Positions 15,520-18,210 of a stretch of 64,000 bases of DNA are shown here, one piece after another. Position 1 is the stretch's first letter. Every line of letters starts with the position of its first letter. The stretch covers positions 3,200,001 through 3,264,000 of the forward strand of contig OY970342.1 of assembly GCA_963717505.1 (NCBI GenBank), written 5' to 3'. Source of the stretch: Candidatus Eiseniibacteriota bacterium (GTDB taxonomy: Bacteria; Eisenbacteria; RBG-16-71-46). A program made the position numbers and the translations under genes. The notes beneath the pieces were generated by a model. The model made no database searches. It saw nothing but the letters and a program-made list of their open reading frames with translations, and was not told where the DNA came from.

Positions 15520-15535
15520 TCGGGCTGAGCCGCCG

Positions 15536-15557
15536 CGACTGTCCGTGCGGACAGTTG
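15536..15557. repeat. 22-nt palindrome, copy 1 (intergenic, downstream of the HNH gene)
   Basis: CGACTGTCCGTGCGGACAGTTG; perfect arms ACTGTCCG/CGGACAGT. Confidence 0.85.
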
Positions 15558-15568
15558 CCGGTAGCAGC

Positions 15569-15593
15569 CGCCGTCGATTCGTGTCGAACGGCG
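15569..15593. terminator. Hairpin between the convergent FG-GAP and HNH genes
   Basis: CGCCGTCGA/TCGAACGGCG stem with one bulge; no U-tract. Confidence 0.4.
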
Positions 15594-15595
15594 AG

Positions 15596-16897
15596 TCACG
15601 GTGCCGAGCCCACGCTCGCCGGCGCCGGAGTGATGGAGTAGGCGCGGGGCCGCAGGCAGGACAACGCCAGGCGCACGCGTTGCTCGAGCGGGGCGTCGGC
15701 GAGAGATGCGCTGTGCTCGGCGGCGCGGCGTGCCTGGTCGGTGCGGACTCCTAAGGCCTGCAACCAGGGAATTACTTCTTCGGTCGCGGTTTTCGCTTGA
15801 GCTTCTTGTGCCTTCTTCGCCTCGTGCATCTTCTTGGCCTGTCTCTCCTCGCGTGCAATCCGAGCTTCCTCGCGCTTCTGGTGCATGAACCCATCGCCAA
15901 ACACGCGCTTGGCTTCGTACTGGTTATGGGCGTGGCAAAGCAGGCGCACGTTGTCGACCGTTGCCTCTCCTCCCCGGGCCACGGGTTCGATGTGATCGAA
16001 TGCGAGCTCCTTTCGTTCCGTGCAACGATGGCCGTTCTCGCCGACGAACGCGCACTGATCCTGGTCGCGCTTCCGGACGGCGCGTCTCACGTGTGCCGGG
16101 ATCGTGCGCTTCGCCGTCGGGGTGCCGCGTGAGCCGGTGCGCGGCCGGTCGGTCGCGGCGTACTTCCGCTTCTCGAGCTCCTTTCGGAGCGACTTGAGTG
16201 CACGGCCGAAGACATCCGCGAGGTCCCCAGACCGAACCCGGTGGCCGAGCAAGGCCTGGACCTGGCGCAAGTCGTCATGCGTCTCCTGGTCGATCGTGAA
16301 CTGGAGCCCATAGCGTTGCGGCGAGAGCGGCTTCACCCTGGCGTGCTGCGTCGCAGGTGTCCGTGCGGACACTTGTTCGGCAACTGTCTGCGCGGACAGT
16401 TGGCCCACCGGACCAGTGGACTCGAAAGTCAGTAGTTCTGCCTCGGGGGCCGGCTCCGATGGAATAGCCTCGATCCGAGCTGGCATATCAGCACTCGGGA
16501 ATCGCTCCGCCAGTAGCTTCTCGATTTCGCCCTGGGTCTTGTGGGTGGCGGCGGCCAGCAATTCGTCGGCGTTGCGCGGGGTGAGGTGAGGCTTCAGCTG
16601 GATCACCCCGGTCAGATGCACCCGGCCCTCGGCAATGGCGTCGAAGATCGCGGGGAATTCTCGCGCCACGCGGCCCGCCCGGATCCGCTTCAGGGCCGAC
16701 TGCTCGGTCAAACGCAGTTCCTGGCGGCAATACTCGTAGGTCGACGGAAACCCGGCGGGGAGATAAAGCTCGCGCGCGTCAATTTCGGCAATGTGAGCAA
16801 TCAGCATCGCCGCATTAGTGCGCTCATGACGATTGTAGGCCGCCGCACTGCGGAGCACTTCCGGACCGTTCAGATGAATCAACGAGTAGGCGTGCAC
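15596..16897 (-). CDS. DUF222-like N-terminal domain + HNH endonuclease + RuvA C-terminal-like domain
   Basis: GTG start VHAYSLIHL; LIAHIAEIDARELY...YC...KRIRAGR...FP...GRVHL; RDQDQC...C...FDHIEPVARGGEATVDNVRLLCHAHN; tail EVIPWLQALG...ARRAA...LEQRVRLAL. Confidence 0.85.
   Translation of the reverse strand: MHAYSLIHLNGPEVLRSAAAYNRHERTNAAMLIAHIAEIDARELYLPAGFPSTYEYCRQELRLTEQSALKRIRAGRVAREFPAIFDAIAEGRVHLTGVIQLKPHLTPRNADELLAAATHKTQGEIEKLLAERFPSADMPARIEAIPSEPAPEAELLTFESTGPVGQLSAQTVAEQVSARTPATQHARVKPLSPQRYGLQFTIDQETHDDLRQVQALLGHRVRSGDLADVFGRALKSLRKELEKRKYAATDRPRTGSRGTPTAKRTIPAHVRRAVRKRDQDQCAFVGENGHRCTERKELAFDHIEPVARGGEATVDNVRLLCHAHNQYEAKRVFGDGFMHQKREEARIAREERQAKKMHEAKKAQEAQAKTATEEVIPWLQALGVRTDQARRAAEHSASLADAPLEQRVRLALSCLRPRAYSITPAPASVGSAP
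16354..16402. repeat. 22-nt palindrome, copies 2 and 3 (inside the HNH CDS, 27-nt period)
   Basis: CAGGTGTCCGTGCGGACACTTG (16354-16375) and CAACTGTCTGCGCGGACAGTTG (16381-16402); they encode QVSARTP and QLSAQTV on the minus strand. Confidence 0.85.
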
Positions 16898-16899
16898 GA

Positions 16900-17113
16900 A
16901 AGCACTTCCTGACTCGGGGGCGAGCCTGATGCTTCGGCCGGGATCTACCACCCGACCGGTTGGGGCGCACTCATTGGAACACACGTGTTCTCGGCGCTCA
17001 GGGATCAACGGAGAACCCACAAAACGCGGCTTCCTGAAATCGAAAGCGCGGGGGGTGCGATTCGACTGATTGAGCGCACGCTTCGCGCTTTGACGCGACG
17101 CCAGAACACCGTC
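16900..17113 (-). ncRNA. Candidate structured RNA / long 5' leader of the HNH gene
   Basis: Nested inverted repeats 16985-16996/17099-17109, 17043-17050/17084-17091 and 17055-17059/17075-17079; an 8-bp hairpin at 16935-16958 that pairs fully only on the minus strand (G-U). Confidence 0.45.
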
Positions 17114-17119
17114 AGCGAG

Positions 17120-17150
17120 ATTGCAGCCACGACGCTCCGAAACGTGTCAA
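17120..17150 (-). promoter_or_regulatory. Putative sigma70 promoter for the HNH transcript
   Basis: Minus strand TTGACA (17150-17145), 19-nt spacer, TGCAAT (17125-17120); AT-richer upstream; spacer longer than canonical. Confidence 0.5.
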
Positions 17151-17323
17151 GAGGTATTTGCTTCGCAGAAAAGATTTCGCAGCGGAGATTCTGGGGTGAT
17201 GCCGCGACGATCTCGATCTCGGCGACATCGAAGTGAGGAACGACCACTCGGCGCGGCGCCTATCGCCACGAAGATCGGTCCGTGCCCCGCGTACGGGTCA
17301 GCGATCGGCCCCAAACGCAGCGA

Positions 17324-17875
17324 CTACCGCCGGATCTGCACCAACGCCCCAGCCAGCGTCGCACCGGCACCGCGGCCCCGCGCAACGGGCGGGGCGTCCG
17401 GCATCTGCCGGCGATGCTTCTCCAGCCGCTTCCAATGCACCGGCCGGTTTTCGCGCAGCCAGGTCTCGAGATCCTCTGCCTTCTTGAACCACGCGCGCGG
17501 CTGCTCCAGCGGATACCGACGCTCGCACTCGCGCGGGTCGTAGTCGCGGCACAGCACCGGATGCCGGCCGTGAATCGAGCAACGTCCCTCGGAGTTCAGC
17601 TGGTCGCAGCGCGTCGGCACGTAGACGAACCAAGCCTCGGGCTGCTCGACGTAGATCTCGATCCCGTGGTGGTGGAGCATCCAGATCGCCTGGTCGTACT
17701 CCCACGGCTGCCGAGGCGGATCGATCTCGATCGTGATGTAGCTGCAGCACGCGACGCAGCCGGCGCACAGGTCGGCGCTCTCGGTGCGCGGCATGAGGCG
17801 CGCCGCCACGGCGTTCTTGGCCTGGCGGCGCCCGGCCGCGTTCTCACTGCGATGCCGATGGGTGGAGTCGTTCAT
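17324..17875 (-). CDS. YkgJ-family (CxxCxxCC) cysteine-cluster protein
   Basis: CAGCVACCSY...RCDQL...CSIHGRHPVLCRDY...C. Confidence 0.88.
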   Translation of the reverse strand: MNDSTHRHRSENAAGRRQAKNAVAARLMPRTESADLCAGCVACCSYITIEIDPPRQPWEYDQAIWMLHHHGIEIYVEQPEAWFVYVPTRCDQLNSEGRCSIHGRHPVLCRDYDPRECERRYPLEQPRAWFKKAEDLETWLRENRPVHWKRLEKHRRQMPDAPPVARGRGAGATLAGALVQIRR

Positions 17876-18210
17876 CGCGTGGTGATCATCCTCCACGCCA
17901 CGCTGACGCAGGCGAGCAGGAACGCCGCGAGTATCGTGGTGCCGAATCCCTTGACGCTGAAGCCCGGTACCAGTTTGGCGGCGATCCACAGCGTGATCCC
18001 GTTGAGCACGAACAGGAATAGTCCGAGCGTCAAGACGGTCAGCGGCAGGGTGAGCACGAACAGGATGGGTTTGAGGATCGCGTTGACCAGGGCCAGCACC
18101 ACCGCACCGAACAAGGCCGGAATCCATCCCTTGACCTGGAACCCCGGCAGTATGCGCGACAGACCCAACATCGCCGCCGCCATGACGAGGAAATAGAGCA
18201 GCGTATTCAC
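17872..18210 (-). CDS. YvlD / 4-TMS phage-holin superfamily IV membrane protein
   Basis: LVNAILKPILFVLTLPLTVLTLGLFLFVLNG...PGF; GGAGG RBS. Confidence 0.9.
   Translation of the reverse strand: MNTLLYFLVMAAAMLGLSRILPGFQVKGWIPALFGAVVLALVNAILKPILFVLTLPLTVLTLGLFLFVLNGITLWIAAKLVPGFSVKGFGTTILAAFLLACVSVAWRMITTR

Follow-up and report, generated by a model that had tools for sequence, protein, structure and literature searches.

Few uncharacterised repeat-gene families of bacteria are, to our knowledge, as common as the DUF222-HNH genes, and we know of no mechanism for the family. In the source passages, the 13E12 repeat genes of Mycobacterium tuberculosis are described as breakpoints of large inversions, induced by DNA damage (PMC13157036), REP13E12/HNH/DUF222 is named as a repeat class (PMC10589994), and DUF222 appears among the domains of HNH enzymes as one whose function is unknown (PMC3592412). 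Here we analyzed 64,000 nucleotides (nt) from a Candidatus Eiseniibacteriota bacterium (assembly GCA_963717505.1, contig OY970342.1, positions 3,200,001 to 3,264,000; referred to as the window), in which a minus-strand gene encodes a predicted HNH nuclease. As in REP13E12 of Mycobacterium (DUF222, PF02720, plus HNH, PF01844), a helical N-domain precedes the HNH core, and the gene is likewise multicopy, its diverged copies being scattered over the chromosome. What lies in the window is one of the copies of a self-contained multicopy cassette of Candidatus Eisenbacteria-type genomes, made up of an upstream region of ~250 base pairs (bp) and a modular nuclease. It belongs to a large, widespread and uncharacterised multicopy DUF222-like HNH family of soil bacteria whose linker-coding DNA carries selected dyad symmetry.

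The main new result is that perfect palindromes lie inside the coding sequence of this family and are a hallmark of the family as a whole. In the window copy, the features concerned are the following (aa, amino acids; pLDDT, predicted local distance difference test):

15596-16897, minus strand: nuclease open reading frame, 433 aa, with a GTG start at 16897 and a TGA stop at 15596-15598
16337-16492, minus strand: DNA coding for the disordered linker (aa 136-187; pLDDT <50 at 138-143 and 145-186)
16349-16402, no strand assigned: two tandem 27-nt units in the linker-coding DNA (16349-16375 and 16376-16402), with the palindromes CAACTGTC..GACAGTTG and GTGTCCG..CGGACAC
15531-15557, no strand assigned: third palindrome unit (ACTGTCCGCACGGACAGT), 38 nt past the stop codon and between two convergent genes

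A first-pass annotation of this DNA had taken the palindromes for flanking cis parts of a nuclease cassette. All three units are real, but the key ones are inside the coding sequence.

To place the window copy among its relatives, one genome per species was scanned, and 541 related stretches were obtained among 597 pattern matches. Counts for relatives refer to the best 80 of these related loci, which are phylogenetically non-independent and come almost all from metagenome-assembled genomes (MAGs) of Candidatus Eisenbacteria, often several per MAG. A palindrome was called perfect if its arms had at least 8 nt and its centre at most 4 nt, and codons 135-215 were taken as the linker region. At least one perfect palindrome was present in this region in 64 of 74 intact loci. 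The palindrome density was 5.18/kb at codons 135-215, compared with 0.25/kb in the other coding sequence and 0.32/kb in the flanks (358 kb), a 20-fold enrichment. The palindromes of the linker-coding DNA are of the type CAAC-N5-CCGG-N5-GTTG, perfect, dyad-symmetric and 18-24 bp long, with one or more per linker, and their centre fell in one codon phase in 86 of 92 cases. Arrays with a 36-nt period were found in several genes (L012, L016, L088).

The arms were diverse and always compensated (ATGCC, TGGCC, TCGCT, TTGCC, TGTCC, CTGCC and others), and the encoded peptides varied with them (QHAPGHV, QLAPGPV, QLAPERV, QLAPGQV, QLSVRTV). Since the arms covary, the symmetry of the DNA is kept while the encoded peptide changes, and the protein consensus LAPGxV therefore appears to be a by-product, or shadow, of the DNA symmetry. 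Of the 84 linker dyads, 57 were symmetric up to and including the central 4 nt, compared with only 7 of 87 other dyads of the same loci, while an unpaired 4-nt centre was seen in 1 of 84 and 38 of 87, respectively. CCGG formed the centre of 46 of the 84 linker dyads and CCAG/CTGG that of 20. On the sense strand, imperfect copies had 14 G:T, 21 A:C and 45 other mismatches, without any G:U bias. The central bases of a palindrome are unusable by an RNA hairpin and usable by a dimeric DNA-binding protein or a cruciform. Symmetry through the centre and the lack of a G:T excess thus point to the DNA level, and the sequences argue for linker palindromes that work as DNA rather than as RNA.

These findings bear directly on the possibility that the palindromes work in the mRNA, as GC-rich hairpins in mid-message that form an internal attenuator, processing site or stabiliser and keep synthesis of the toxic nuclease half below that of the N-domain; the C-box hairpin of the leader at the ribosome-binding site would then add translational control, and the protein would be a tightly dosed DNA nuclease. 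A palindrome just past the stop codon, at 38 nt in the window copy and at 2 nt in L011, has a terminator-like place, and the extragenic copies of the own genome are intergenic and alternate with a GTTAGG..CCTAAC hairpin; in four other genomes (G001-G004), however, such palindromes are missing outside family genes and hence are not general terminators there. Likewise, the C-box and hairpin that 69 of 77 loci have next to the Shine-Dalgarno sequence would suit translational control, but the linker dyads keep symmetry at exactly those central positions that an RNA hairpin cannot use (57/84 compared with 7/87), and wobble pairs are not favoured on the sense strand. We consider a role in the mRNA unlikely.

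The further modules of the protein map to the DNA as follows:

16493-16897, minus strand: N-terminal seven-helix domain, DUF222-like (aa 1-135), whose fold weakly resembles the DNA-binding domains of ParB/KorB/SopB
15899-16096, minus strand: Zn-finger HNH nuclease core (aa 268-333)
15755-15895, minus strand: long Lys/Glu/Ala-rich helix (aa 335-381), whose length differs among paralogs
15650-15784, minus strand: RuvA-domain-III-like tail (aa 372-416), with predicted contact to RuvB residues 96-161

The minus-strand open frame extends over 15596-17020 and has 474 aa when counted from its first GTG. Translation almost certainly starts at the GTG at 16897 (433 aa) and not with this longer frame, since the sequence database entry for the gene product has exactly 433 aa, an ATG stands at the aligned start position in 6 of the 7 own-genome copies, stops within a few codons close the upstream frame in 5 of the 7 (alignment of the seven copies), and the aligned start codon of 70 relatives from other genomes was ATG in 61 and GTG in 7. 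The stand-alone minus-strand gene of the first-pass annotation is real, with this shorter product. In an AlphaFold2 model built with an alignment of 112 relatives (mean pLDDT 82.7), the protein consisted of a seven-helix N-domain (11-132), the disordered linker, a beta element with two helices (188-246) and the HNH core (268-333), followed by one long helix (335-381) and helices at 386-399 and 404-414. The coiled segment and three-helix tail that had been read from the letters are thus seen in the model. The HNH core, annotated as intact, passed PF01844 with 25.4 bits (cut-off 21.4), and C282, C292, D301, H302, C321 and H324, the Zn ligands and catalytic residues, were invariant across 112-120 relatives.

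The DUF222-like character of the N-terminus, also part of the initial annotation, was partly borne out, by matches outside the window copy. PF02720 matched the N-termini of three paralogs below its cut-off (model positions 2-104; best 21 bits compared with 24.4), and 22 of 30 feature matches in the ESM Atlas were DUF222-bearing clusters, but the N-domain of the window copy gave no Pfam match to DUF222 at E ≤ 1. Modelled alone, the N-domain reached a pLDDT of 96.4. No significant neighbour of this isolated model was found in the PDB, and the best template-modelling (TM) scores (0.41-0.51) were those of the DNA-binding domains of SopB, KorB, ParB and Spo0J on palindromic sites, a likeness of folds that we take as no more than a lead.

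The tail resembles RuvA domain III in Pfam, in a profile search of the PDB and in its modelled fold, as had been suggested. PF07499 (RuvA domain III) matched 37 of 112 relatives at E ≤ 0.01 (best 7.7e-6), the window copy itself lying below the Pfam threshold, and the five best matches of the family profile to all PDB sequences were all RuvA domain III (E 0.073-0.31). The ruvA equivalog model TIGR00084 aligned with the tail over its positions 144-201 of 202 (E 0.36, 10.4 bits compared with 85); RuvA domains I and II, the junction-binding tetramer core, were not matched in the window protein by this model. Foldseek superimposed the tail on M. tuberculosis RuvA (2ztc_B) over 46 columns with a root-mean-square deviation of 1.5 Å, 33% identity and a probability of 0.97, with E = 1.7 for the whole 433-residue query. 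The tail was kept in all 6 intact paralogs of the own genome. It occurred as two sequence subtypes, which were exchanged between the otherwise close pair c5/c6. The own genome carries a canonical ruvC-ruvA-ruvB operon and hence a separate canonical ruvA.

A complex of tail residues 362-420, supplied with the family alignment, and the RuvB of the own genome was predicted together with three controls. The score was 0.66, compared with 0.00 for the best of the 3 controls; of 80 solved complexes, 58 attained the mark set for this score, and of 110 mismatched pairs, 2 did. At least 89% of the contacts agreed between runs, the pLDDT of the partner was at least 82, and the predicted interface joined RuvB residues 96-161 with tail residues 377-417. 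Since complexes of RuvA domain III with RuvB are already solved, this result indicates that the tail looks like a RuvB binder and does not imply binding. The same predicted interface as that of RuvA domain III could also serve to titrate or block RuvB, an alternative already raised in the first-pass annotation, which would make the protein an anti-recombination or anti-repair factor. Seven copies could mean a high dose, but nothing separates inhibition from recruitment, and the fusion of the tail to an intact nuclease in 6 of 6 intact paralogs fits delivery better than sequestration, so that we regard titration as quite improbable.

The window genome is a single contig of 4.16 Mb with seven family loci, 6 of them intact and 1 broken (c7). 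In protein sequence the copies were 44-52% identical to the window copy (tblastn), and 58% was obtained for the largest piece of c7. This broken copy (G000 ~2,174,170-2,175,344; L007-L009) is spread over three frames, and its linker has grown to about eight 36-nt palindrome units, some with TAG. Two paralog pairs were closer to each other in DNA (90.6% over 1,127 nt and 81.5% over 1,315 nt), and in both the similarity broke off sharply just past the HNH core. Over 6,216 pairs of relatives, N-domain identity and C-terminal-half identity were correlated with only r = 0.57, and one pair had 99% and 83%, respectively. The abrupt loss of similarity, the swapped tails and this correlation therefore indicate that modules are exchanged by recombination.

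The mechanism that we favour, on the strength of the sequences, the models and the analogy with known systems, is that a dyad-recognising nuclease together with RuvB drives recombination among the copies; taken as a whole it is tentative, and we judge it more likely to be wrong than right. The protein would work as a dimer, a nuclease or nickase with specificity for either a site or a structure in DNA. It would recognise the dyad-symmetric sites of the linker DNA, whether duplex or extruded (cruciform or hairpin), with the N-domain as the probable recognition module. A cruciform is a four-way junction, the natural substrate of RuvAB. By docking on the host RuvB motor the tail would couple cutting to branch migration, and the outcome would be break-induced recombination among copies, seen as gene conversion, module swapping and array expansion, with palindromes occasionally seeded elsewhere. 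The family would persist as a self-promoting, semi-selfish recombination element, for which the mycobacterial REP13E12 (DUF222-HNH) genes that mark inversion breakpoints would be a parallel.

Several observations weigh against this mechanism. Cleavage, binding and recombination are all inferred, and so is the mechanism as a whole. The predicted complex (0.66 compared with 0.00) would fit the recruitment of host RuvB proposed in the first-pass annotation, but its score may stem from RuvA-RuvB structures that are already solved and known to the model. A crude motif of our own found the tail in 41 of 74 intact loci, and many of the 150 best representatives matched the family profile only up to position ~345-355, so that the tail is dispensable for much of the family. 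The likeness of the N-domain to ParB-type domains was not significant (E 2.5-5.1, probability 0.14-0.35). One gene may hold palindromes with different arms (L012, L016), which goes against recognition of one sequence by one protein and leaves only recognition of structure or of the outer bases. Palindromes of this kind also occur away from the gene, 7 of 10 in G005 lying outside family matches and 3 inside, and about 20 similar ones being found in intergenic DNA of the window's own genome. The low identity of the paralogs gives no sign of recent copying, and in the two closest paralog pairs the break in similarity falls past the HNH core and does not coincide with the palindromes.

In G001-G004, all 26 of 26 perfect palindromes matching ACNNNSCCCGGGSNNNGT were inside family-protein matches, and a reversed-pattern control for this search gave 0-2 matches per strand. 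The six regions of outside palindromes examined in G005 had no leader match (all E ≥ 0.09). Two of the seven outside palindromes of this genome stood in frame within a ComM/YifB-type ATPase gene (L123:1504-1629; G005:C1 ~170,300-170,430), in an insertion of ~210 residues between the ChlI-N and Mg_chelatase domains, and palindromes can therefore live in the linker of another gene. In the own genome, the intergenic palindromes often alternated with the second hairpin, GTTAGG-N-CCTAAC, and some were letter-identical to paralog linkers, the 22-mer of c3/c4 occurring again at 2,027,595. The sites (G000) were 177635, 325374-325410, 826622-826660, 901977-902035, 1571276, 1638402, 2006928, 2027595-2027695, 2042131-2042191, 2779517-2779554, 3553514-3553558 and 4101766; one of these clusters was just upstream of a tRNA-Arg gene. 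By analogy, the clusters resemble a small REP/BIME family. Decay of gene copies was rejected as their source, the family hidden Markov model reaching a best E of 1.7 against six-frame translations of 11 extragenic sites, and no palindrome was found within 700 nt of the sole Y1_Tnp (IS200/RAYT-type) gene (G000 1,412,470-1,412,808, minus strand). The palindromes thus reside mostly in family genes and can appear elsewhere, which may be likened to the relation of REP and RAYT.

Another reading of the palindromes is that this is an ordinary expanded McrA-like restriction or repair HNH family in which they are passengers, small dyad repeats that multiply through slippage or template switching and that any disordered linker would tolerate, and in which the tail is a generic three-helix protein-binding module. 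The occurrences in the ComM-type linker of G005 and in own-genome intergenic DNA, the run-away array of about 8 units in c7 and the CCGG centre of 46 of 84 dyads would agree with passengers; against them stand the presence of palindromes in 64 of 74 members, at a fixed place and codon phase in proteins only ~45-50% identical, and the confinement of all 26 matches in four genomes to family genes. JGI labels many family members 'McrA', and EcoKMcrA (6ghc) was the first Foldseek match of the whole model (E 0.29; TM 0.11-0.17), yet the McrA reader of modified cytosine (5-methylcytosine) was absent from the 50 listed fold matches of the N-domain, and none of the PADLOC 2.0 defence models was matched (best REase_II, a type II restriction enzyme model, E 0.0075, 13.8 bits). 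PHROGs matched the HNH core only, with a weak 'endonuclease VII' match (E 0.0017). Passengers in a McrA-like family are, in our estimate, about as unlikely as a role in the mRNA.

The second conserved part of the cassette lies upstream of the gene:

16898-17150, minus strand: conserved non-coding 5' region of 253 nt, which the leader model sees only upstream of the 7 own-genome copies
17145-17166, minus strand: TTGACA box (17145-17150), resembling a -35 box, with an A/T-rich tract just upstream
16972-17002, minus strand: conserved block CCTGAGCGCCGAGAACACGTGTGTTCCAATG, consisting of GAGCGCCGAAAAC and a -10-like TGnTAnnA box, 165-168 bp from TTGACA in 54 of 57 loci
16936-16958, minus strand: leader hairpin GGTCGGG...CCCGGCC, with arms that vary among paralogs (CCGGAT/ATCCGG or CCTGATC/GATCAGG)
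16905-16926, minus strand: C-box hairpin GGCTCG-CCCC-CGAGTC, then a Shine-Dalgarno-like AGGAAG

DNA similarity among the copies sets in ~250 nt ahead of the start codon, at a TTGAC(A/G) box, and continues into the gene. The TTGAC box was present in 71 of 77 loci, mostly at -212 to -253 and preceded by GA(T/A)TTC or an A-rich tract; downstream of it follow the conserved block GAGCGCCGAAAAC-N-CGTGnTAnnA and one or two GCCCCCG boxes (C-box), which 69 of 77 loci have no more than 70 nt from the start. The hairpin beside the Shine-Dalgarno sequence has arms that vary by subfamily. A sequence-only leader model of the last ~110 nt, trained on relatives and the window copy, recovered all 7 own-genome copies at E ≤ 3.8e-5, with no other match below E 0.018, and the leader is therefore part of the cassette. 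RNA coverage consisted of one identical 155-nt contig over 16795-16949 in each of two metatranscriptome runs, which may be one data set; neither strand nor transcript ends are visible in it, and DNA carry-over is possible.

A structured leader had been proposed from the letters. Conservation and family specificity of the region stood, whereas structure did not: RNAalifold on 57 leaders gave 0 pairs, an ungapped covariation scan of 54 leaders found no position-fixed helix with at least 4 columns at ≥80% canonical pairing, and the folding energy of the window leader was ordinary (z -1.40; 19 of 200 shuffles folded equally well). An inverted repeat of GTTTTCGG..CTC after TTGACA and GAG..CCGAAAAC was rejected, cognate pairs being no better than non-cognate ones over 52 loci (means -18.1 and -18.8 kcal/mol; p = 0.83). 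Rfam gave chance-level matches only for the window leader and 9 relatives' loci and no matching family; two matches taken as chance were mir-1909 at 17288-17363 on the minus strand (E 0.058, 24.7 bits compared with 80) and c-di-GMP-II-GAG at L014:1371-1457, far from the gene (E 0.064, 30.5 bits compared with 40). The proposal that the leader is an RNA part was not upheld, which bears on the idea of an RNA-guided nuclease of IscB/HEARO type whose guide or scaffold RNA is encoded upstream. The conserved non-coding region directly upstream of every copy would fit, but lacks a consensus fold, fixed helices, a supported repeat, unusual folding energy and an Rfam match alike. NCBIfam IscB (NF040563) did match residues 310-432 of the 474-aa frame at E 2.7e-8, but with 33.3 bits (cut-off 175) and only over model positions 182-298, and Pfam showed no RuvC-like domain. 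This reading is close to refuted.

For the promoter proposed in the first-pass annotation, a TTGACA box is present (17145-17150), but no -10 box follows. A canonical promoter was rejected, since a promoter scan gave 0 sites and no -10 box lies 16-18 nt downstream. The tRNA promoters of the own genome are canonical (TTGACA-N17-TAnnnT), and TTGACA without a following -10 box is therefore not a normal -35 box here. The TGnTAnnA block resembles extended -10 boxes ahead of some own-genome tRNA genes. Of 57 loci, 54 had 165-168 nt between TTGACN and the -10-like TAnnAA hexamer, and 47 had 166 or 167; the start codon, by contrast, followed the -10-like box at anything from 39 to 103 nt. The sequence in between is poorly conserved, non-coding and without conserved helices. 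A small open reading frame in this fixed-length spacer was rejected because no antisense phase was consistently open, and so was a coding spacer, substitutions being without 3-periodicity (319/295/276 over 19 pairs). Since ~166 bp is close to 16 helical turns, we read the spacing as a constraint of DNA geometry, which may reflect looping or wrapping, and the upstream region as probably a DNA-level control region rather than a structured or guide RNA.

Joined to the palindromes and the tail, this would amount to a new nuclease-palindrome partnership, comparable to RAYT/REP: a nuclease with its own substrate sites in its linker DNA, a captured RuvA domain III and a promoter in which -35-like and -10-like boxes 165-168 bp apart (about 16 helical turns) act as a DNA-geometry switch and not as an RNA leader. 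Its palindromes would be able to form cruciforms, and the enzyme, plugged into the host RuvB motor, would exploit both features to promote recombination between copies and to sow palindromes at other places. In this full form we think it rather unlikely, though slightly less so than a role in the mRNA.

Sequence of the IS481 type was also seen near the TTGAC box. An IS481-family transposase gene (rve, HTH and LZ_Tnp_IS481 domains) adjoins the box at L034:1448-2674 on the minus strand, and in several unrelated MAGs such a gene, or only its end repeats (..TGTCCCCGGTCTGATCTGTTACCAGTGTGCCCGGTCTGGACC), lies within ~10-15 nt of it. The 100 nt upstream of the box contained IS481-type sequence in L020, L034, L047, L076, L088 and L090, and the same was found upstream of the own-genome copies c5 (G000 ~775,330-775,390) and c7. 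Either the IS481 element prefers that spot, or the A/T tract with TTGACA is a hot target.

The neighbours of the nuclease gene are ordinary: a convergent FG-GAP repeat protein, a CxxCxxCC-domain protein, a holin-family membrane protein and a homocysteine S-methyltransferase/MTHFR fusion. The CxxCxxCC-domain frame (17324-18127, minus strand, 267 aa) was conserved in relatives only over residues ~103-250, and its true start is probably well downstream of the first ATG. As first annotated, no transposase, integrase or Cas gene adjoins the nuclease gene within the window. The anatomy of a classical mobile element was not borne out: among the own-genome copies there were no terminal repeats, target duplications or shared 3' ends, no homology beyond the TTGAC box or past the stop codon, the flanks being unrelated, and no near-identical copies showing recent movement (closest pair 90.6%). 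Transposase, terminal inverted repeats, target-site duplication and near-identical copies, the marks of a transposon or insertion sequence, were not found; nor does the placement suit a homing endonuclease, the window gene sitting between two convergent genes and the other copies having unrelated flanks. The 5' flank was conserved among homologues and the 3' flank was not. The observations of the first-pass annotation are thus confirmed in part, and its interpretation is supported in part: the tail is modelled with a RuvA-domain-III-like fold, the 5' flanks are conserved, and with seven loci in the genome and a patchy syntenic site the gene is not single-copy and syntenic.

This patchiness was seen across the 12 loci examined. 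The methyltransferase-holin-CxxCxxCC gene string is conserved in relatives of other genera, and a family gene follows the CxxCxxCC gene only in the window genome and G017, whose copy is 46% identical to the window copy and no closer than the paralogs. G012 has a family gene in the opposite arrangement, none was found within 1.5 kb of the site in 9 of the 12 loci, one of them from G025, and in G020 the CxxCxxCC gene directly adjoins the end of a convergent FG-GAP-type gene. The gene is therefore not a fixed resident of this site. Of 151 genomes sampled from the phylum, 93 had a match at E ≤ 1e-20, and usually many, including 54 of 59 in the own family and 0 in seven families (G025, part of this sample and of the synteny set, is unpublished). 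Searched against 1.84 billion representatives at 50% identity, the family profile gave 31,773 matches at E ≤ 1e-3 and 8,431 at E ≤ 1e-30. A phage or plasmid origin was rejected: the four IMG/VR matches were confined to the HNH core, and tblastn against PLSDB found no plasmid relatives.

The palindromes are a clear example of selection at the nucleic-acid level shaping a protein linker. For a family of this abundance, the Eisenbacteria branch gives three handles, namely a candidate DNA substrate inside the gene, a candidate host partner in RuvB, approached via a captured RuvA domain, and an upstream region with strict spacing. If the palindromes are the substrate, the family would stand for a new class of nucleases, specific for a structure or a site and coupled to branch migration, and its genes' behaviour as recombination hot spots would be explained. 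The mechanism proposed above, if true, would also explain the 13E12 cousins at inversion breakpoints and their DNA-damage response.

Among described systems, IscB shares with the cassette an HNH core and a conserved non-coding upstream region, but the window protein has no RuvC domain and its locus no HEARO/omega-RNA match or conserved RNA fold. HNH nickases and McrA-type enzymes (Gme HNH, 4h9d; EcoKMcrA, 6ghc) and resolvases of the T4 endonuclease VII type have the same beta-beta-alpha-metal Zn-finger core; in contrast to McrA, no modified-cytosine reader domain was detected in the window protein, and we hypothesise that it might cut junctions in the manner of T4 endonuclease VII. The helical DNA-binding domains of ParB, KorB and SopB for palindromic sites gave the best TM-scores with the N-domain, although the likeness is not significant (E ≥ 2.5) and neither a CTPase nor a ParB N-terminal domain was found in the window protein. 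The sites of these proteins are often in or beside the protein's own gene. With RuvA domain III (PF07499), the RuvB-binding module of the RuvAB motor, the tail has a three-helix fold and a sequence pattern in common, but the window protein is without domains I and II and carries the module fused to a nuclease via a long helix. REP13E12 differs in that the window protein falls below the DUF222 cut-off, and the source passages on REP13E12 make no mention of a RuvA_C-like tail, linker palindromes or an upstream region of fixed spacing. In the titles and abstracts of the literature searched (subscription journals and supplements lay outside its scope), an HNH-RuvA_C fusion, palindromes in such coding sequences and this upstream region are undescribed. 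Compared with RAYT-REP (REPIN) systems, the enzyme is an HNH nuclease and not an HUH/Y1 transposase, the palindromes are contained in the coding sequence of the enzyme itself and do not flank it, and their numbers are small (tens). In both, however, a nuclease gene family is tied to short palindromes that vary among lineages and that in some genomes also fill intergenic DNA as tandem hairpin clusters.

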